Shown piece after piece: positions 26,078 through 48,898 of a stretch of 64,000 bases of DNA. Under the pieces are notes generated by a model. That model did not search any database. It saw only the letters and a list, made by a program, of their open reading frames with translations, and was not told where the DNA came from. The stretch covers positions 162,936 through 226,935 of the forward strand of contig JANLIT010000003.1 in the NCBI GenBank assembly GCA_024653945.1, written 5' to 3'. Origin of the DNA: Candidatus Campbellbacteria bacterium (GTDB lineage: Bacteria > Patescibacteriota > Minisyncoccia > Phycocordibacterales > EsbW-18). Each line of letters opens with the position of its first letter. Position 1 is the stretch's first letter. Both the position numbers and the translations under genes were made by a program.

Positions 26078-27505
26078 CTATTTCTCGCCTAAAAACTTTT
26101 TACCAACCGAAAATAAACGTGATTCACCCATATGCGGAGCAATAATCTGAAGTCCGAGCGGAAGTTCAACACCGTCTTCCAGAACTTTTCCTGATGGCAC
26201 TGACATCGCGGGCATACCTGTGTGATTTGATGAAACAGTGAAGATATCCTCAAGATACATCGCAACTGGATCATTCACCTTGCTTCCGATTTTGAACGCC
26301 GGACCAGCTGTTGTTGGTGTCACAATGACATCACACTTCGTGAATGCGTTCACAAAGTCTTGTGTAATACCGCGTCGCACAGCATTCGCCTTGTTATAGT
26401 ATGCATCGTAATAGCCAGAGGACAACACATAGGTGCCAATCATAATGCGTCTTCGTGGTTCAGGACCAAATCCTGCACCGCGTGTTTTGAAGTAATCCGC
26501 AATCAAATCATCACCATCGGTGTGCAAACCATATTTTACACCGTCAAAACGCGCGAGGTTTGAAGATGCCTCAGCGGGCAAAATAACGTAATACGTCGGC
26601 ACAGAATATTTTACAAGTGGAAGCTCAATATCAACAAGTTCGTATCCGAGGTCTTTCAGTTTTTTAAGTGCGGCATCGAAATTCGCTCGTACATCATCGC
26701 GAAGTTTGTTCTCATCTAAGAATGTGCGCGGTACACCTATTTTTTTCACTTCCGTTGGAACACTTGGATAATCAGAGGCATCAACTGTTGTTGCATCCAT
26801 GGTGTCTTTACCAGAAATTGTTTCAAACACAGCTTCAACGTCGCCAACCGTTTTTCCAAATGGACCAATCACATCAAGTGATGAACCGAGAGCAATCAAA
26901 CCGTGACGCGATACACTTCCATACGTCGGTTTTAGACCAACAAGACCACACAATGCCGCTGGCTGTCGAATAGAACCTCCTGTATCAGAACCAAGAGACA
27001 CAAGTGCACCACCCATCACCACAGCAGCTGCAGAACCTCCTGATGAGCCTCCGGGAACGCGTGATGTATCAAGTGGATTTTTTGTCGGACCATATGCAGA
27101 CTGCTCGGTTGAACTTCCCATCGCAAATTCATCCATGTTTGCTCGTCCAACAATTACGGCTCCTGCAGTTTTTAATTTTGCAACAGCGGTTGCATCATAC
27201 GACGCAATATATCCTTCTAAAATCTTTGAACCGGCAGTTGCTGTTTTTCCTACCATACACATGTTGTCTTTCAAAACAATTGGAATTCCTGTGAGTGCCG
27301 TTGCTTTCCCTTCCACAATCAGTGCATCTGCTTTTTTTGCCTGCTCTCGTGCATCAGTAAATACTTCAAGAAATGCGTGAATTTCTCCATCTTTTGCTTT
27401 GATGTTGGCGAGACACGCGTCCAGAAGTTCCACCGCAGTGAATTCTTTTGCATTCAATTTCTTTCGTACCTCCACAATTGATAATTTCGTCACATCTATC
27501 GTCAT
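26078..27505 (-). CDS. gatA: Glu-tRNA(Gln)/Asp-tRNA(Asn) amidotransferase subunit A
   Basis: 475 aa amidase-signature protein, ..GGSSGGSAAAV.. Confidence 0.9.
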   Translation of the reverse strand: MTIDVTKLSIVEVRKKLNAKEFTAVELLDACLANIKAKDGEIHAFLEVFTDAREQAKKADALIVEGKATALTGIPIVLKDNMCMVGKTATAGSKILEGYIASYDATAVAKLKTAGAVIVGRANMDEFAMGSSTEQSAYGPTKNPLDTSRVPGGSSGGSAAAVVMGGALVSLGSDTGGSIRQPAALCGLVGLKPTYGSVSRHGLIALGSSLDVIGPFGKTVGDVEAVFETISGKDTMDATTVDASDYPSVPTEVKKIGVPRTFLDENKLRDDVRANFDAALKKLKDLGYELVDIELPLVKYSVPTYYVILPAEASSNLARFDGVKYGLHTDGDDLIADYFKTRGAGFGPEPRRRIMIGTYVLSSGYYDAYYNKANAVRRGITQDFVNAFTKCDVIVTPTTAGPAFKIGSKVNDPVAMYLEDIFTVSSNHTGMPAMSVPSGKVLEDGVELPLGLQIIAPHMGESRLFSVGKKFLGEK

Positions 27506-27789
27506 AGAATATTTTTTACCTTCACAAAGTTGCCTTCGCGAGTAGGCGCATTATTCAAAAGTGCTTCAGTGTATACCCCACTTTCGTGCGGATGTGCGTC
27601 TTCACGAAGCACATTATGTGGCACACCGACCGATGTGTGGTCATCCAAGTTCACCTTGGCGCCCTTGAGCTCGTCCACAAACGCAATAATGGCGTCCATG
27701 TCTTTTGCCAAGGATTCTTTTTCACCTTCAGGAAGCTCTATACGGGCAAGTTGTGCAAGTTTTTCAATATCTGCTTTAGAAATACTCAT
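27502..27789 (-). CDS. gatC: Glu-tRNA(Gln) amidotransferase subunit C
   Basis: Starts MSISKADIEKLAQLARIEL (ATG 27789); overlaps gatA start by 4 bp. Confidence 0.8.
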   Translation of the reverse strand: MSISKADIEKLAQLARIELPEGEKESLAKDMDAIIAFVDELKGAKVNLDDHTSVGVPHNVLREDAHPHESGVYTEALLNNAPTREGNFVKVKNIL

Positions 27790-27849
27790 GTCTGTATTGT
27801 ACCAAATATGTGAAAACCCCGCCCTGCGCGAACGCAAAGGCGGGGTGAA

Positions 27850-28660
27850 CTTGAGAACTACACGGTCATCTTAGGCGACCTTGCGAACGACCAGGACTTA
27901 GTTGTTGAGTTGCTACTACCTGCGGAGACCGGCGGGCTCGCGGTAATTCCACCTGTCATTGAGCCAGCGCCAGGACACGCTCGGCTGTTTGACACCGCAG
28001 TCCATGTATGGGACATGGAGCTCGTCTTCGTCGTCGCGGACGACCGAGGCCCAGCCATAGACCACCTTTCCGCGCCAATCGGCGGGGATGCAGTTGGGAT
28101 TCGCCTCATACCACTTCAGGTCACCGAACGACAGCGATCGCCCGAGAAGATCCACCGCCCTGAGACCGGCGTACACCTCGTGACCAGTCGGCCTGTTGCT
28201 GGTCGGCTGCCGCAGGTCGAGCCAGATACCGGTCTCGCCGGGATCGCGAAGCGTTGGCGCCTCGAGCCCCGGCGTGAGGTGCTTGCGCACCCAGTTGGGG
28301 TACTCGAGCACCGACCTCTTCACCACCTCGACGATGCGGATTGTCTTCCCCTGCCTGATTGCCTCGAGGGCAATCGGAATGACGGCATCAGGACCCTGGA
28401 GACCTCTCTCCTGAAAAACCTTGGCCGTAATTCCTACAGCACGTGCCTGTCGTGCAACCTCTCGTCCTTGTCCGTCTGTTGCGAGCGCACCCTGCTGTCT
28501 TGGCATAGGAAGCTCCTTTCGTGTGTGGTCACCACAAGCATCAGCCCGAATGGCCGTGCGCCGTGGTATCCGGTTGGTCCTACCTTAAGAGCATTCGATA
28601 GAACAATACGCCCCTTGGAGTTTCTGTCAATATTTGGGAATATTTTTTTAATTGGGATTT
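27850..28660. other. GC-rich (~60%) segment, probable horizontally acquired insertion between gatCA and ligA
   Basis: Compositional shift against ~43% background; long ORFs on both strands as expected for high-GC DNA. Confidence 0.55.
27916..28506 (-). CDS. hypothetical protein encoded in GC-rich island (strand assignment uncertain; overlapping + ORF 27910..28662)
   Basis: 196 aa ORF, more globular-looking than the overlapping + strand ORF; no recognised motif. Confidence 0.35.
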   Translation of the reverse strand: MPRQQGALATDGQGREVARQARAVGITAKVFQERGLQGPDAVIPIALEAIRQGKTIRIVEVVKRSVLEYPNWVRKHLTPGLEAPTLRDPGETGIWLDLRQPTSNRPTGHEVYAGLRAVDLLGRSLSFGDLKWYEANPNCIPADWRGKVVYGWASVVRDDEDELHVPYMDCGVKQPSVSWRWLNDRWNYREPAGLRR

Positions 28661-28696
28661 GAAGATTATTTGTACCATGACATACTATAGTTAGAT

Positions 28697-28897
28697 TTGT
28701 TTGGAAAGGAGATGTATATGTGTCGACACAAGACACGCAAACCAGCTACCAAAGGAAGGCGCAAACTGACACCCCTCAAGCCTGTGAGGATCAAATTCGA
28801 AGACTGGCCGGAATACGAGAAAAAGGCACTTGAAGAAATCGACCGTTCGGAGAGACGTCCTCAGGGCCCGAGAGGCAACCCCATCATCAACGTCTGA
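28697..28897 (+). CDS. small basic hypothetical protein
   Basis: 66 aa Lys/Arg-rich ORF ending just before a terminator. Confidence 0.3.
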   Translation: MFGKEMYMCRHKTRKPATKGRRKLTPLKPVRIKFEDWPEYEKKALEEIDRSERRPQGPRGNPIINV

Positions 28898-28906
28898 CTT
28901 CTTTTT

Positions 28907-28929
28907 TCCTCCCCTTGTGGGAGGATTTT

Positions 28930-28932
<3 letters not shown>
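28907..28932 (+). terminator. rho-independent terminator
   Basis: cctcccc ttgt gggagg + TTTTTT. Confidence 0.65.
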
Positions 28933-30996
<2,064 letters not shown>

Positions 30997-32342: not shown

Positions 32343-32855
32343 CTACTGCCAATTAAATAACTCCTCGTGCAGTACAAAAGACCTATTCACCAACACATCA
32401 TTCCACGACACGGTAATGGTTGCTGAAATTTCCCTATCGCGGTCTTCTCCATATGACAGCGAAACTGTTCGTGTAAATTTGGTATCTACCCAACCATTCT
32501 CATATCCATACTTACCCGTGGCGTCGTCAAACTGTAGAGCGGGACAGACGGTCTCATTTACACCTTCACATTTCGTAATTGTATTTTGAGGAATATCTAC
32601 TGTGCACGAACTAGGACTAAAACAACCCTCAGGAAAAACAGAAAGCCAATCACCTGTACCGGTAATTGCACCACTGTCGCGTTTAAATCGTAAAAATTCA
32701 ACCCCCTCTTGTGCAAGATAATTCGCCACTATCTGGTCACGCGCAATACGTGCCGCTCGGAGACCTTGTGCCGCAAGAGACAGCGGAGCAACCACAGAGA
32801 CAATGAGCACCGCGATGGCAACAATAGTTTCAACGAAGGTGAACCCAGTATTCAT
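32343..32855 (-). CDS. type IV pilin-like protein (prepilin N-terminal G|FTFVE)
   Basis: MNTGFTFVETIVAIAVLIVSVV.. from ATG 32855; ORF-track extension to 32963 covers the conserved upstream repeat. Confidence 0.75.
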   Translation of the reverse strand: MNTGFTFVETIVAIAVLIVSVVAPLSLAAQGLRAARIARDQIVANYLAQEGVEFLRFKRDSGAITGTGDWLSVFPEGCFSPSSCTVDIPQNTITKCEGVNETVCPALQFDDATGKYGYENGWVDTKFTRTVSLSYGEDRDREISATITVSWNDVLVNRSFVLHEELFNWQ

Positions 32856-32965
32856 GTAGCATGTAGCATGTAGCATGTAGCAATTTGATTCTTGTATTTT
32901 GTTATTTGTTTTGTGCTTCATGGTACATGTTGTGTGTTTCATGGTACATGTTTCGTGTTTCATTC
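32856..32965. repeat. conserved pilin 5' region repeat, copy A, with (CATGTAG)n heptamer tandem repeats
   Basis: Near-identical ~90-110 bp blocks precede all three tandem pilin genes (32856..32965, 33509..33598, 34193..34287). Confidence 0.8.
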
Positions 32966-32971
32966 AAATTC

Positions 32972-33508
32972 CTATCTCTCCAAAAATCTCTGTGTTATGA
33001 GTGTCTGTAAATTGAAGGCTACCTCTGTTCTGGGTGTTTTTCCTGCAGTTCCACGCATAATAATAAGCACTCGTGGCTGTCCACCATCATTCTCAAGATA
33101 AAATTTGAGCGTAGTAACATTAACGTCTGGAGAAGTCACGGGAAGAAAACCCCCACCTTCTCGGTCGCGCATAATTTGTCCTCTACCCTCTACTGTTGTT
33201 GCTAATTTATACGTCACTGGTACGACGGGCGCGCTGTCGGTATCGTTGAAAGAAAATATTTCAGAGCCACTCGCACAGTCTGCAAGCGCATCACCTGGTG
33301 TTGCTGAACATGAATAACCTCCTCCCACACGAATGGCGCGCGTCATGGCATCAAGTGAAAAATTGAGATTGTTCATGACCGTTTTTGTTGCCTGCGCCTT
33401 TCTGTTTGCATCAAGCATGCTTATTACTGCAGTTGCAGCAACAATCATCACAATAGAAAAGATAAAAAGCGCAACAATCATTTCTACGAGCGTGAAACCA
33501 GCATTCAT
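32972..33508 (-). CDS. type IV pilin-like protein (G|FTLVE)
   Basis: MNAGFTLVEMIVALFIFSIV.. from ATG 33508. Confidence 0.75.
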   Translation of the reverse strand: MNAGFTLVEMIVALFIFSIVMIVAATAVISMLDANRKAQATKTVMNNLNFSLDAMTRAIRVGGGYSCSATPGDALADCASGSEIFSFNDTDSAPVVPVTYKLATTVEGRGQIMRDREGGGFLPVTSPDVNVTTLKFYLENDGGQPRVLIIMRGTAGKTPRTEVAFNLQTLITQRFLER

Positions 33509-33598
33509 GTGGCGTGTAGCATGTAGCATGTAGCAATTTGATTCTTGTTTTTTGTTATTTGTTTTGTGTTTCATGTTACATGTTGTGTGTTTCATTTA
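33509..33598. repeat. conserved pilin 5' region repeat, copy B
   Basis: See copy A. Confidence 0.8.
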
Positions 33599-34192
33599 AA
33601 TCCCCACCTCTTCTACCCCCGCTGGTGCTTCTTCCAATCGAGAAACTGAAATTTGTCCTGTTGATTCCACAACAACAAGCCGACTTCCTCCGCGTGGAGT
33701 AACTAATTCAATACCGACAGCACCAAGCGCTCTTGTTACACCACCTGAGACTGTGTTTATAATTGCATCTGGATTAGGGCGTTCAAATATAATATTCGCA
33801 TTTTCTAGCTCGCTGTCGCATGTTTTCGCGGTTGAAAAATCACATAAACGCGCCACGGTGAAACCACGTCCTAGCGTAAATGTTTCAAGGGTTTCTTCTG
33901 GGCTACTACTATATGCGTAATTACCGTCAAGATCGAGAAAGAGTTTGTATGTTGTGGCATCCGTGCCTGCTTCAAAATACACACCATATGCATTATCAAA
34001 ATTAGTACCCTGTCCCAGCACATGAATACCGTAATTTTGCGCCTGTCTAATAGAGAGCGCCACATCATATGCCACATCTGCAAGAAGCACCTCGTTATCA
34101 AACTGACTATTGCGCACAAGAACCACGGTGGAAATGAGGGCAAAAATACTCACCGTTACAATGAGTTCCATGAGGGTGAACCCGGCATTCAT
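33596..34192 (-). CDS. type IV pilin-like protein (G|FTLME)
   Basis: MNAGFTLMELIVTVSIFALI.. from ATG 34192. Confidence 0.75.
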   Translation of the reverse strand: MNAGFTLMELIVTVSIFALISTVVLVRNSQFDNEVLLADVAYDVALSIRQAQNYGIHVLGQGTNFDNAYGVYFEAGTDATTYKLFLDLDGNYAYSSSPEETLETFTLGRGFTVARLCDFSTAKTCDSELENANIIFERPNPDAIINTVSGGVTRALGAVGIELVTPRGGSRLVVVESTGQISVSRLEEAPAGVEEVGI

Positions 34193-34287
34193 GTAGCGCG
34201 TAGCATGTAGCATGTAGCAATTTGGTTCTTGTATTTTGTTATTTGTTTTGTGTTTCATGTTACATGTTTTGTGGTACATGTTTCGTG
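34193..34287. repeat. conserved pilin 5' region repeat, copy C
   Basis: See copy A. Confidence 0.8.
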
Positions 34288-35782: not shown

Positions 35783-35935
35783 AATTTTTTTGCGAACTAA
35801 TAAATCGCTTACGTTAATAAAGCCCTTTTATTATAGGCGCTATTAGGAAAAGCGGAAAGAGCCCTGTGTATAACTCTTCACTTGCCTTTATTTTCAAGGG
35901 CACGCGTCCATTTCTCCTGAAATAGCGCTCGCATT

Positions 35936-36049
35936 CCCGATTTGTCCCTGTCAACAGGGCTACAAATCGCAATCTTTTAGGGCTCGGCCTCTTCGGCCTC
36001 CCGATTTGTCCCTGTCAACAGGGCTACAAATCGCAATCCTTTAGGGCTC
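35936..36049. promoter_or_regulatory. two tandem ~50-bp direct repeats (35936..35985 and 36000..36049) in the pilA upstream region, each carrying hairpin ccctgtcaacaggg
   Basis: cccgatttgtccctgtcaacagggctacaaatcgcaatcYtttagggctc repeated with a 14-bp spacer; a + strand-oriented terminator-like hairpin (36076..36110, ccgaacttttgctctgcaaaagttcgg+TTTTTG) follows. Confidence 0.5.
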
Positions 36050-46468: not shown

Positions 46469-47290
46469 ATGAAGCTTAGCGTTTTTAAAAAAGCCATTTG
46501 GAAATACTACCAAACGCATGGCCGTATATTGCCGTGGAGAAAAACACACGACCCCTACAAAATACTTGTGTCAGAAATAATGCTCCAACAAACACAAGTG
46601 GACCATGTGATACCGAAATATAGTTTGTTCGTTAAAAAGTTTAATAGTTTCAAGGTTTTAGCGAATGCAAAAACATCTGATGTTATTAAGGCCTGGCAAG
46701 GTTTGGGATACAACCGCCGGGCACTCAATCTGCAACGTGCAGCTCGAGAAATTGTACAAAAACACAACAGTAAACTTCCATCCTCCTACAGTGAGCTAGT
46801 TTCCCTTCCTGGAATTGGTCCATACACCGCAGGTGCTCTTTTGGCATTTGCATACAACAAACCTGTTGTATGTATTGAAACAAACATTAGAAGTGTGTTT
46901 CTCACACACTTCGCTGATTTACGCAGATTGAAACGCAAATCAACGCGGATGATTCACGATAAGGAATTGCTTCCACTGATTGAAAAAACTCTTGACCACA
47001 AAAACCCACGAGAATGGTACTGGGCGCTCATGGATTATGGTTCACACCTCAAAAAAACACTTCCCAACCCAAGTCGCAAGAGCACACACCACACAAAACA
47101 AAAACCTTTCAACAATTCAAACCGACAACTTCGTGGAAACATACTTAAACTAGTGTCTCAAAAAAATGTTTCCGAAAAAACACTTTTCACACGCATACAA
47201 AGAAAACCAATTGAAATACGAAGGGTACTCAAAACGCTTAAGAAAGAAGGGTTCATAAAAAGACAAGGAAAAAATATTTCTCTTGTATAA
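46469..47290 (+). CDS. HhH-GPD family DNA glycosylase (MutY/EndoIII-like N-terminal domain, no Fe-S cysteine cluster, C-terminal wHTH-like tail)
   Basis: 273 aa; ..ILVSEIMLQQTQV.., HhH ..LVSLPGIGPYTAGALLAFAY.. Confidence 0.7.
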   Translation: MKLSVFKKAIWKYYQTHGRILPWRKTHDPYKILVSEIMLQQTQVDHVIPKYSLFVKKFNSFKVLANAKTSDVIKAWQGLGYNRRALNLQRAAREIVQKHNSKLPSSYSELVSLPGIGPYTAGALLAFAYNKPVVCIETNIRSVFLTHFADLRRLKRKSTRMIHDKELLPLIEKTLDHKNPREWYWALMDYGSHLKKTLPNPSRKSTHHTKQKPFNNSNRQLRGNILKLVSQKNVSEKTLFTRIQRKPIEIRRVLKTLKKEGFIKRQGKNISLV

Positions 47291-47297
47291 GAAAAGT

Positions 47298-47335
47298 CCG
47301 TGTTCCGGGAGTTTGAACCCCAGAACACGGACTTG
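47298..47335. terminator. bidirectional terminator hairpin between convergent genes
   Basis: aagtccgtgttc-cgggagtttgaaccccag-gaacacggactt. Confidence 0.6.
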
Positions 47336-47340
47336 AGCAG

Positions 47341-48150
47341 TTAGAACCTTGTGAACAGTCCGGTGGCGATTTCGCCAGTGCGATCGTCCCAGTCGGGAAG
47401 GTTGATGCCTCGGGAGTAATTCACTCCCACGCCAACCGATAACGAGCCGACCTCACGTGCGATTTCGGTGGACGCTCTCCAGACGAGCCCTTCTCCGGCG
47501 CCAAACGCACCGGTGTCGTGCAGAACTTCGAGACTCGATGTCGAGGACCACTTTCCGAAGGTCTTTCCGACCTCCGCACCGAGGTGAGTGTTCCACCCGG
47601 CCAGAGGTTCGATGCCCTGAAGCGGCCAGTAGTAGTCAATCTTGAGATATCCCTTGATCGACCACCCCCGTTCCTTGTAACTCGATGTGAAGAGGTCAAC
47701 ATAGACCCAGCCCACATCCGAAGGTGAGAGGTGCGACACCAAGAGGTAGGCAACTCCGAAATCAATGAAATCGTTCGGCGCACAGCCGACCGTGATGTCG
47801 ACTTCGTCGCCATACGAGTTCAACCAGCGCCCCCTGGCACGAGACCACCAAAGGTCTCCGTAGCACCCACTTCTGAAGAGAAGTGTCATGTTGCCTTGTA
47901 GCACTGGCTTGTCATGGAACACTCCTCCGGTCGAGCCGAGGTACTTGCTCCACAGCTCGATGCCACCACTGAAGGTGACGGCCGATTCCTGCTCGATTTC
48001 CTGGCTGTGCGCCGCGCACGAACCGAAGATCACGGCGAGAAGGATGGTGACGACCGCCAGAATGAAACCCACCAAGAACGAACGCGAACGAGCCTTCCGA
48101 CTGTCGTTCAATTGCGAACCGAGTCGTTGCTCTTCCTGTTTGTTTCGCAT
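47341..48150 (-). CDS. GC-rich (~58%) ORF encoding an OMP-like beta-barrel protein (N-terminal TM/signal, C-terminal ..TRF)
   Basis: 269 aa; alternating beta-strand pattern rich in Gly/Tyr/Trp, C-terminal aromatic residue as in outer-membrane beta-barrels; strong GC shift against flanks. Confidence 0.5.
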   Translation of the reverse strand: MRNKQEEQRLGSQLNDSRKARSRSFLVGFILAVVTILLAVIFGSCAAHSQEIEQESAVTFSGGIELWSKYLGSTGGVFHDKPVLQGNMTLLFRSGCYGDLWWSRARGRWLNSYGDEVDITVGCAPNDFIDFGVAYLLVSHLSPSDVGWVYVDLFTSSYKERGWSIKGYLKIDYYWPLQGIEPLAGWNTHLGAEVGKTFGKWSSTSSLEVLHDTGAFGAGEGLVWRASTEIAREVGSLSVGVGVNYSRGINLPDWDDRTGEIATGLFTRF

Positions 48151-48307
48151 CCCTGCCTCCTTTAAAAATCGTCGACTGAAATGTCGAAGATCAATTTCCA
48201 GTATCTATTATAGCAAGAATAACGTATTTGTCAACCCAGTGTGTTGTCATCAAGGTTAAACCTCGATACCCCCACCGGGTCAATGCTTTACCGGAAAACA
48301 CGGGACC

Positions 48308-48898
48308 CTACAGATGACTTGCTTCAAGCGCTCGATTGATTTCAACAAGTGCTTTTCGGTGTGTGGGTGCAAAAGATGAAATGTGTTCAAGAGAGAAATG
48401 ATACGGTCGAGATAGGTGTTCTGTATAAGCAGAGTCACCTTGTACATAACCCAGCTCATGCAAAATACGCAACACAAGAAGAACTTCAAACGAAGCGAGG
48501 TTGTCTTGTGTGACATCGGGACCAGCGAGGGCTGAAAGTCCATTCCACACTAAATCAAACACAACACTTCCCTGCTCTTCATCAACAACCAATCGTCGAA
48601 CTAGTTGTAAAATGCGTACTGCAAGCATTCTTTTTTGTCTATCTTCGTGTGAGAAAAAAACTGACGAGAGCGGGGTTACATTGGTAATACGCCACCCATC
48701 ACGCGAACGCACGAGTGACACATCAGAAACAGAAGAAAATTGTAAACCATACCGATGGCGTGAACGAACTTCGCGGGATGATTGACACCGTGCAAGTACC
48801 ACTCCCATATCAGATGTAAACAATCGGTACGTGCGACTCGCCTCACCAACATTGTATGCGCCGAGAACGATTGCTTTTGTGTGGTGCTTGGAATACAT
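48308..48898 (-). CDS. recO: DNA repair protein RecO (short form)
   Basis: 196 aa; N-terminal OB-fold ..KAIVLGAYNVGEASRTYRLFTSDMGVV.. and helical C-terminal domain. Confidence 0.7.
   Translation of the reverse strand: MYSKHHTKAIVLGAYNVGEASRTYRLFTSDMGVVLARCQSSREVRSRHRYGLQFSSVSDVSLVRSRDGWRITNVTPLSSVFFSHEDRQKRMLAVRILQLVRRLVVDEEQGSVVFDLVWNGLSALAGPDVTQDNLASFEVLLVLRILHELGYVQGDSAYTEHLSRPYHFSLEHISSFAPTHRKALVEINRALEASHL

Follow-up and report, generated by a model that had tools for sequence, protein, structure and literature searches.

A probable solo member of a family of diversity-generating retroelement targets between ligA and gatC in a Candidatus Campbellbacteria genome

Diversity-generating retroelements (DGRs) rewrite part of a target gene: a template repeat (TR) is transcribed, a reverse transcriptase (RT) copies it with errors at adenines, and the cDNA replaces the variable region (VR) of the target. 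Here we describe a GC-rich island between ligA and gatC in a 64-kb stretch of a Candidatus Campbellbacteria genome (the window; positions 162,936 to 226,935 of contig JANLIT010000003.1, assembly GCA_024653945.1), which holds a gene for a protein of 196 amino acids (aa). The explanation we favour, with a probability of about 0.75, is a minus-strand unit encoding a two-module DGR target protein of the candidate phyla radiation (CPR), most likely a solo copy with a fixed variable face and possibly one that is served remotely. CPR DGR variable proteins are known already, and this is a new member of that kind, with no retroelement within 64 kb.

DGR variable proteins with a C-type-lectin (CLec) fold include Mtd of Bordetella phage BPP-1, TvpA of Treponema denticola and the archaeal AvpA, and CLec targets end in a GFR-like motif. 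The protein studied here is similar in that its VR corresponds to the last ~40 residues, in its hydrophobic-R end motif (AGLR) and in the predicted order of its structural elements, beta-beta-alpha-alpha followed by five strands. Unlike the CLec proteins it has no match to the FGE-sulfatase/CLec domains of Pfam, no PDB sequence match and no significant Foldseek match in PDB or BFVD. A DGR clade of the CPR was reportedly first described by Paul et al. in 2017. Roux et al. 2021 (PMC8144416) delimit a CPR-restricted clade ('clade 2') whose targets typically lack transmembrane segments or known domains, and suggest that chimeric DGR targets arise by intragenic recombination. Our protein resembles the clade 2 targets: it is a small CPR protein with no transmembrane segment or known domain, its VR lies at the extreme C-terminus, its N- and C-terminal parts are modular, and its homologues are followed by TR, bAvd and RT and show adenine-specific mismatches. 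It differs from them in having no TR, Avd or RT in 64 kb and no hairpin after the VR, and in occupying a slot between ligA and gatC where relatives fuse the same N-terminal module to unrelated C-terminal modules.

The third comparison is with polymorphic toxins and the MAT fibre tips of Bdellovibrio (PMC10769870), which the locus resembles in combining a constant leader and N-terminal module with three unrelated C-terminal modules in three genomes. In contrast to those systems, no toxin, immunity or fibre domain was detected, neither an immunity gene nor an array of orphan cassettes lies downstream, and the protein is only ~200 aa long with no secretion signal (judged by eye).

A protein family linked to retroelements

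The minus strand of the island is the coding strand, because a ribosome-binding site, the codon-position GC pattern and the homologues all fall in the minus frame. The Shine-Dalgarno (SD) sequence AAAGGAG stands 6 nt ahead of the ATG of the 196-aa open reading frame (ORF), and GC at the three codon positions is 0.67/0.48/0.73, as expected of a GC-rich coding frame. The translation is an exact match to a recorded protein, MCR4274953.1 ('hypothetical protein NUW02_02810'), from a Candidatus Campbellbacteria metagenome-assembled genome (MAG). A collection of 5.8 billion proteins returned 10-11 homologues beyond this exact match (E 6e-51 to 3e-9), several of them covering 96% of the query. The codon-usage check proposed in an earlier note on this DNA, which had left the strand open, is thus decided: the island is a minus-strand gene, with all of the homology evidence in that frame. 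That note had also described the island as free of recognisable domains, and this description stands: the protein has no match in Pfam, NCBIfam, PADLOC or, by sequence, the PDB, its best PHROG hit is at E=0.2, and Rfam gave nothing above chance for the region.

A profile search among 1.84 billion cluster representatives recovered 613 at E<=1e-3 and 151 at E<=1e-10. Most of the 613 clusters match only the ~130-aa C-terminal domain (profile positions ~45-175), and a few carry several copies; the distant members P0027, P0033, P0065 and P0090 (481-804 aa) contain three to four copies (loci and proteins of relatives are given L and P numbers throughout). No Pfam domain was found in any of 80 members scanned, and sequence-profile searches of the PDB revealed no solved structure of any relative; a match to ChlH in these searches was spurious. 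All family members with a named source are CPR bacteria (Zambryskibacteria, Moranbacteria and Campbellbacteria). Searches of 185,579 GTDB species genomes and of the viral contigs of IMG/VR with the family profile A3 returned no relative, and a 52-nt degenerate VR pattern likewise had no match in either set. The sole exact 19-mer match in viral contigs (L003) was discarded as chance, since it lies inside a GC-rich phage tape-measure gene and has no VR/TR repeat. The absence from GTDB genomes and IMG/VR agrees with the clade of Roux et al. 2021 (PMC8144416), whose DGRs are cell-encoded and restricted to the CPR.

The relatives' loci are textbook DGRs. In six independent loci the last ~125 nt of the target gene, the VR, are copied downstream as a TR. 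The TR lies ~450-520 nt beyond the VR and is followed by an oppositely oriented bAvd and then by the RT; bAvd and/or RT were seen wherever the contigs extend far enough downstream. At L001 (protein P0003) the VR (2025-2148, the last 124 nt of the gene) recurs 520 nt downstream as the TR (2545-2668) with 90% identity. All mismatches within the shared core fall at TR adenines, and an RT of the RVT_1 family follows (E 5e-23). The VR and TR of L005/L006 are 87% identical and are followed by bAvd and RVT_1, those of L011-L013 are 83-84% identical and precede an RT that is 56% identical to the L001 enzyme, and those of L020 are 84% identical on a contig that ends inside an Avd-like gene. Compared with its own TR, a VR differs at 12-17 of ~30 adenine positions as opposed to 1-2 of ~95 other positions. 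Two loci from different Joint Genome Institute (JGI) samples, L011 (Ga0307948_1029963) and L012 (Ga0307972_1000531), differ at 2 of 2905 nt, and both differences lie in the VR at TR adenines, a direct sign that diversification by the DGR continues in a close relative. The arrangement extends to distant members. At L021 (Moranbacteria) 11 of 13 VR/TR mismatches are at TR adenines and bAvd and RT follow; at L023, where bAvd and RT also follow the target gene, the split is even, with 13 mismatches at TR adenines and 13 elsewhere, in a compared stretch that overruns the end of the repeat. In these relatives the DGR would randomise about 10-17 codons on a presumed ligand-binding face while the scaffold stays fixed.

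One further member, P0010 (L004:3393-3995), is also solo: its 9.4-kb contig carries neither a TR nor an RT, and its neighbours are rpoD and a CYTH gene. The adenine fraction of its VR (0.23) and the intact AAC codons are TR-like, as if this VR had never, or hardly, been mutagenised.

Identity between the window protein and DGR-linked members is 42-50% where the alignment covers 96% of the protein, and reaches 61% at a coverage of 76%. The matches of the window protein to proteins with VR/TR-paired 3' ends (P0002, P0003, P0008 and others) have E values of 6e-51 to 1e-36. The invariant scaffold residues of the VR region are all kept (V155, V165, P166, P175, V177, W179, L182 and A192-R195), and the L001 TR is 73% identical to positions 27921-28043. 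When the window VR was compared with the TRs of L001, L005, L011 and L020, mismatches were found at 47-52% of TR adenines and at 20-39% of the other bases, as is also seen when other VRs are compared with TRs that are not their cognate ones. Judged from these alignments, the pattern indicates past A-directed diversification from a TR outside the sampled set.

A variable region with no cassette in the window

At the window gene, the elements that accompany its relatives were not recovered. Within the 64 kb we detected no TR-like repeat of 27919-28044 at >=60% identity, no DGR RT (the best tblastn hit with the L001 RT had an E value of 3.4) and no Avd, and gatC begins where the cassette would normally sit. 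The DGR-linked relatives have a strong hairpin 10-20 nt after the VR that is not present in the 3' untranslated region (UTR) of the window gene: the ~85 nt from the VR end fold with -13.3 kcal/mol here, compared with -21 to -39.5 kcal/mol in L001, L020, L005, L011 and L021. The window gene is probably a solo copy whose variable face is now frozen. Its product, in which inspection by eye revealed no obvious N-terminal signal peptide or hydrophobic segment, would be a small cytoplasmic binding protein with one fixed specificity or, alternatively, the remote target of a DGR elsewhere in the genome.

We modelled the protein with AlphaFold2 (AF2). On an alignment of 52 sequences the mean predicted local distance difference test score (pLDDT) was 84, with residues 71-196 at 90-98; this model replaced an earlier one on 10 sequences (pLDDT 54), for which the fold search had been uninformative. 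The N-terminus is predicted to form helices at residues 11-23, 28-33, 39-51 and 56-63 (pLDDT 41-76). In the C-terminal domain, the conserved GLRR forms the last of the five strands that follow the beta, beta, alpha, alpha elements. Residues 63-196 would make up a compact alpha/beta domain whose last ~42 residues are the DGR variable region in relatives, and by analogy with other DGR targets it is most likely the face of residues ~155-196 that binds a ligand. Despite pLDDT values above 90, Foldseek searches of PDB and BFVD with the model gave no match at E<=0.001. The top PDB match, which was not significant, was the C-terminal domain of Bd2740. Its authors regard this domain as a C-type-lectin variant, and among CLec proteins only Mtd has the same trimerisation mode.

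The GC-rich 3' end of the window VR, the 19-nt sequence GAGCCCGCCGGTCTCCGCA, occupies the position of the initiation of mutagenic homing (IMH) element in studied DGRs, and we regard an IMH function as putative. A GC-rich IMH and a downstream hairpin were defined as target-recognition elements for phage BPP-1 (Guo et al. 2011, as cited in PMC8144416).

Several observations weigh against a frozen, ligand-binding DGR target. The nearest foreign TRs and the window VR also disagree at 20% of non-adenine positions, and the A-biased history of the VR is suggested by an enrichment (about 50% versus 20-39%) in a pattern that is not clean. Its adenine fraction of 0.20 falls between those of active VRs (0.10-0.15) and TRs (0.23-0.26) and is ambiguous. 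The perfectly preserved GC-rich VR end fits a target that can still be addressed, and our search for a cassette covered 64 kb of a 228-kb contig, which leaves room for a DGR acting in trans. The role as a binder is drawn from analogy, with a predicted fold that has no significant counterpart in PDB or BFVD.

Some of these observations lead to a tentative alternative, in which the gene is an active remote target, diversified in trans by a TR, Avd and RT that lie outside the 64-kb window. DGRs with several or distant targets exist. Consistent with such service, the VR scaffold is intact, its 19-nt end is identical to that of L001, and the VR departs from related TRs preferentially at adenines. 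However, six of the eight family loci with sufficiently long contigs have the cassette immediately downstream, at the place taken by gatC in the window. The strong hairpin of the DGR-linked loci is missing after the VR, and the adenine fraction exceeds that of active VRs. We consider a solo copy the better description of the window gene.

The ligA-gatC slot and its GC-rich cargo

The minus-strand transcription unit would comprise a promoter, a leader of ~97 nt, the 196-aa ORF and a terminator (Table 1). A promoter-consensus scan of 27700-29000 gave the sigma-70-like element as its sole hit, ~97 nt upstream of the gene. The leader is 87.9% identical to that of a related genome (L008) over 107 nt, a span that takes in the first codons; the long hairpin predicted for it immediately before the SD (-33.8 kcal/mol, z = -1.85) is statistically unremarkable. 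The terminator-like hairpin, ~70 nt downstream of the gene and inside a block that is 88.9% identical to L008, has a loop of more than 8 nt and was therefore overlooked by the consensus scan.

The window is syntenic with two related lineages, in which pilin-like genes and ligA precede a gene X, and gatC, gatA and further genes come after it. Gene X encodes P0011 (214 aa) in L008/L009 (GCA_964600545.1 and an ENA assembly) and P0012 (233 aa) in L014-L019 (contigs from several sequencing runs), where it directly follows ligA. The housekeeping flanks described in the earlier note, gatC/gatA on one side and ligA on the other, were both recovered, whereas the gatC-ligA adjacency it had suggested looking for in relatives was not observed: gene X occupies the slot in both lineages.

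The N-terminal part of the window protein is shared with these neighbours. Residues 1-62 are 85% identical to P0011 and 51% to P0012 by BLASTP, and 78 nt of this module (28327-28404) are 85.9% identical to L014 while the flanking genes are at 67-69%. The C-terminal domain (residues 63-196) has no alignment with L008 or L014 at the DNA or protein level. The C-terminal parts of the window protein, P0011 and P0012 are unrelated to one another, and neither P0011 nor P0012 resembles the DGR-target domain in this part; the idea that the P0012 C-terminus is remote kin of the family was dropped when hhalign comparison of both proteins with the family profile gave a match at the N-terminus only. P0011 had no relative in IMG/VR. 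An empty site was not found in either related lineage, as the slot is occupied in both with the N-terminal module shared and, in L008, the leader too. From these alignments the slot appears old and occupied in all three lineages, with the C-terminal ~135 codons as the varying part. Residues 1-62 would be a small helical module that was inherited with the locus and is carried by Campbellbacteria-like relatives in the same slot.

Table 1. Features of the island and its flanks, and alignment of the region with the related locus L008
Feature	Position in window	Strand	Basis or counterpart
Protein-coding gene, 196 aa	27916..28506	-	ORF, SD, GC pattern, homologues
Candidate sigma-70-like promoter, TTGACA-16 nt-TATTGT	28603..28630	-	10/12 consensus matches; consensus match alone
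5' leader, ~97 nt, GC 0.55	28507..28603	-	Conserved with L008
N-terminal helical module (predicted), residues 1-62	28321..28506	-	BLASTP, DNA alignment with relatives, AF2
C-terminal alpha/beta domain (predicted), residues 63-196 and stop, GC 0.647	27916..28320	-	Profile search, AF2
VR-equivalent segment, residues 155-196	27919..28044	-	Alignment with relatives' TRs and six VR/TR pairs
GC-rich 3' end of VR, GAGCCCGCCGGTCTCCGCA, codons EPAGLR	27921..27939	-	19/19 nt identical to L001 VR and TR ends
3' UTR, lineage-specific, 54 nt	27862..27915	-	L008 homology resumes at 27861
Intrinsic-terminator-like hairpin, CCCCGCC...GGCGGGG then TTTT	27819..27848	-	Read from sequence, just upstream of gatC
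gatC	Adjoins island, downstream of minus-strand gene		PF02686, E 7e-13
gatA	26078-27505		Amidase Pfam domain of syntenic counterparts
ligA, NAD-dependent	28930-30936		Ligase Pfam domains of syntenic counterparts
250-aa ORF	27910..28662	+	Antisense shadow of minus-strand gene
66-aa basic ORF, more likely 59 aa from ATG 28718	28697..28897	+	ORF call
Terminator-like hairpin then TTTTTT	28907..28925	+	After 66-aa ORF, abuts ligA stop
Leader and first ~50 codons	28603-28358		L008:5374-5619, 82.5% identity
~500 bp	28357-27862		No L008 counterpart, not alignable
3' flank and gatC	27861-27576		L008 6137-6422, 88.9% identity
gatA, window versus L008			80% identity

A doubtful but conceivable history is that the C-terminal ~135 codons and the 54-nt 3' UTR (27862-~28357) were recently recombined into the slot gene from another CPR DGR target. 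Consistent with this, ~500 bp are unalignable to L008 while both sides are 82-89% identical, three related genomes carry three unrelated C-terminal modules, the domain has a GC of 0.647 in a host of 0.44, and a Y1 (IS200-like) transposase gene (PF01797, E 6e-8; L008:4558-5226, minus strand) lies beside the slot gene in L008, between ligA and X. The window N-terminus, however, also resembles that of the DGR-linked members (QGRExARxAR, with 96% coverage of the protein), so that the window gene, rather than being a recombinant, may be the ancestral full-length form, the other two lineages having swapped. No recent donor is visible, because the nearest sampled homologue is only 61% identical, and the vertically shared part of the gene is GC-rich too. 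At 27700-29000 there is no integrase or transposase gene, no flanking direct repeat and no tRNA target, and no trace of the L008 transposase was found in the window. The recent horizontal insertion proposed in the earlier note thus holds in part: the foreign composition, the rarity and the ~500 bp of lineage-specific sequence agree with it, but the slot gene is common to two related lineages.

The composition of the island was then compared with that of its surroundings. In 300-bp segments, GC is 0.47 at 27550, rises to 0.59-0.65 at 27850-28450 (0.57-0.65 over 27850-28599) and is 0.46 by 28450-28749. The 600-bp peak of 0.622 at 27901 lies ~5.4 standard deviations (s.d.) above the window mean (0.444, s.d. 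0.033) and is the strongest outlier in the window; GC exceeds 0.52 in only one other region, 47200-48350. The abrupt shift reported earlier was therefore borne out, but not its extent, since 28604-28930 is host-like at 0.443 and the GC-rich span is effectively ~750 bp (27850-28600). The gene itself (GC 0.626, GC3 0.73, versus GC3 of 0.33-0.42 in neighbouring genes) is compositionally atypical for its host.

A similar offset was found in every locus examined, where the target gene is GC-richer (0.51-0.65) than its contig (0.41-0.61). The offset amounts to 7-18 GC points over the host contigs in L001, L004, L005/6, L010-12, L021 and L023. RT and Avd are host-like (GC 0.40-0.42, with hosts at 0.42-0.46). 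In the ligA-gatC slot, the unrelated C-terminal modules of the window, L008 and L014 all have a GC of 0.63-0.65, and the vertically shared leader and N-terminal module is at 0.54-0.58 in the window and L008. High GC is a persistent property of the family and of the slot cargo. Because it is a family trait in every host examined, composition alone does not date a transfer.

An assembly chimera, in which a GC-rich fragment of another organism was mis-joined into the contig, had been offered as the other source of the island, and is very improbable. The abrupt compositional shift is the only point in its favour. The ORF is intact and has an SD, promoter and terminator, and independent homologues match it over 96% of its length. 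Assemblies made independently from other samples show the leader, the first ~50 codons and both outer flanks arranged in the same order, and a chimera would need two in-frame mis-joins within 500 bp.

In DGR biology, the window gene is a clean example of a target that has no cassette beside it and sits at a place where the C-terminal module is exchanged among relatives. Such a target supports the proposal, credited to Roux et al. 2021 (PMC8144416), that DGR targets are both assembled and taken apart by recombination within genes. The possibly non-canonical fold, the module exchange at a fixed housekeeping slot and the unexplained GC offset of the target genes are what remains novel. Two bolder readings, namely that the C-terminal domain is a DGR scaffold of neither the CLec nor the immunoglobulin (Ig) type and that the ligA-gatC slot is a site of cassette exchange, seem to us unlikely. 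Should the fold really fall outside the C-type-lectin family, it would offer a new scaffold for programmable hypervariation; if it were non-Ig as well, it would be a third structural answer to massive sequence variation, apparently restricted to the CPR. A cassette-exchange slot would combine a constant leader and N-terminal adaptor with interchangeable, uniformly GC-rich C-terminal modules, adding a recombinational layer to retroelement mutagenesis or replacing it.

Opposite-strand frames and other features of the window

Long ORFs are present on both strands, as the earlier note had observed (196 aa on the minus and 250 aa on the plus strand). The plus-strand ORF has no family match in Pfam, NCBIfam, PHROGs or PADLOC, and its codon-position GC of 0.66/0.48/0.63 is less coding-like than that of the minus frame. 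Long antisense ORFs are expected opposite high-GC3 genes, and the 250-aa ORF is such an antisense shadow, not a gene.

We also considered whether the island is a structured non-coding RNA, or the plus-strand ORF a real gene after all; either is barely credible. GC-rich islands in AT-rich genomes are often RNA genes, and a long ORF does exist on the plus strand. However, Rfam yielded no gathering-score match in the island (only tRNAs elsewhere in the window): at E<=10 there were chance-level hits alone, all with E>=0.3 and far below gathering. Only the minus frame has homologues with conserved motifs, and the AF2 model of the minus-frame protein is of high confidence.

The practical lesson is that a domain-less GC island with ORFs on both strands turned out to be a gene of a sizeable family (at least 613 clusters) that is understood through the genomic context of its relatives.

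The small basic 66-aa ORF and the terminator that the earlier note placed after the long ORFs are both there. The more likely start, ATG 28718, has the SD GGAAAGGAG 6 nt ahead of it. The ORF has no homologue among 5.8e9 proteins and no match in Pfam, NCBIfam, PHROG or PADLOC, and the annotation of the MAG itself apparently does not call it. In L008 the Y1 transposase gene stands in its place, and in L014 nothing does; descent from that transposase as a remnant was ruled out, as tblastn and blastn found nothing. The 66-aa ORF may be a lineage-specific small gene, or spurious.

The second GC-rich region of the window, ~47200-48350 (600-bp GC up to 0.578), contains a 269-aa ORF on the minus strand (47341-48150) between a 273-aa gene (46469-47290) and recO (48308-48898). 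The ORF begins with a hydrophobic N-terminal segment, its sole Pfam match is sub-threshold (Gcw_chp, E 2e-3), and it may be another compositionally foreign gene.

Three tandem pilin-like genes at 32805-34279 have in common a 5'-terminal repeat of 138 nt (84-85% identity), which encodes an odd N-terminal extension (MKHTTCxMKHKTNNK...) ahead of an N-methyl-type hydrophobic segment. Two 51-nt direct repeats (35935-35985 and 35999-36049) are 98% identical and 64 nt apart from start to start, each with an internal inverted repeat, GATTTGT...ACAAATC. Finally, a 163-nt block is duplicated with 90% identity at 2018-2180 and 2490-2652, where it overlaps the starts of tRNA-Met (2154) and tRNA-Asp (2626), and both copies hold the same 34-nt palindrome-like element.

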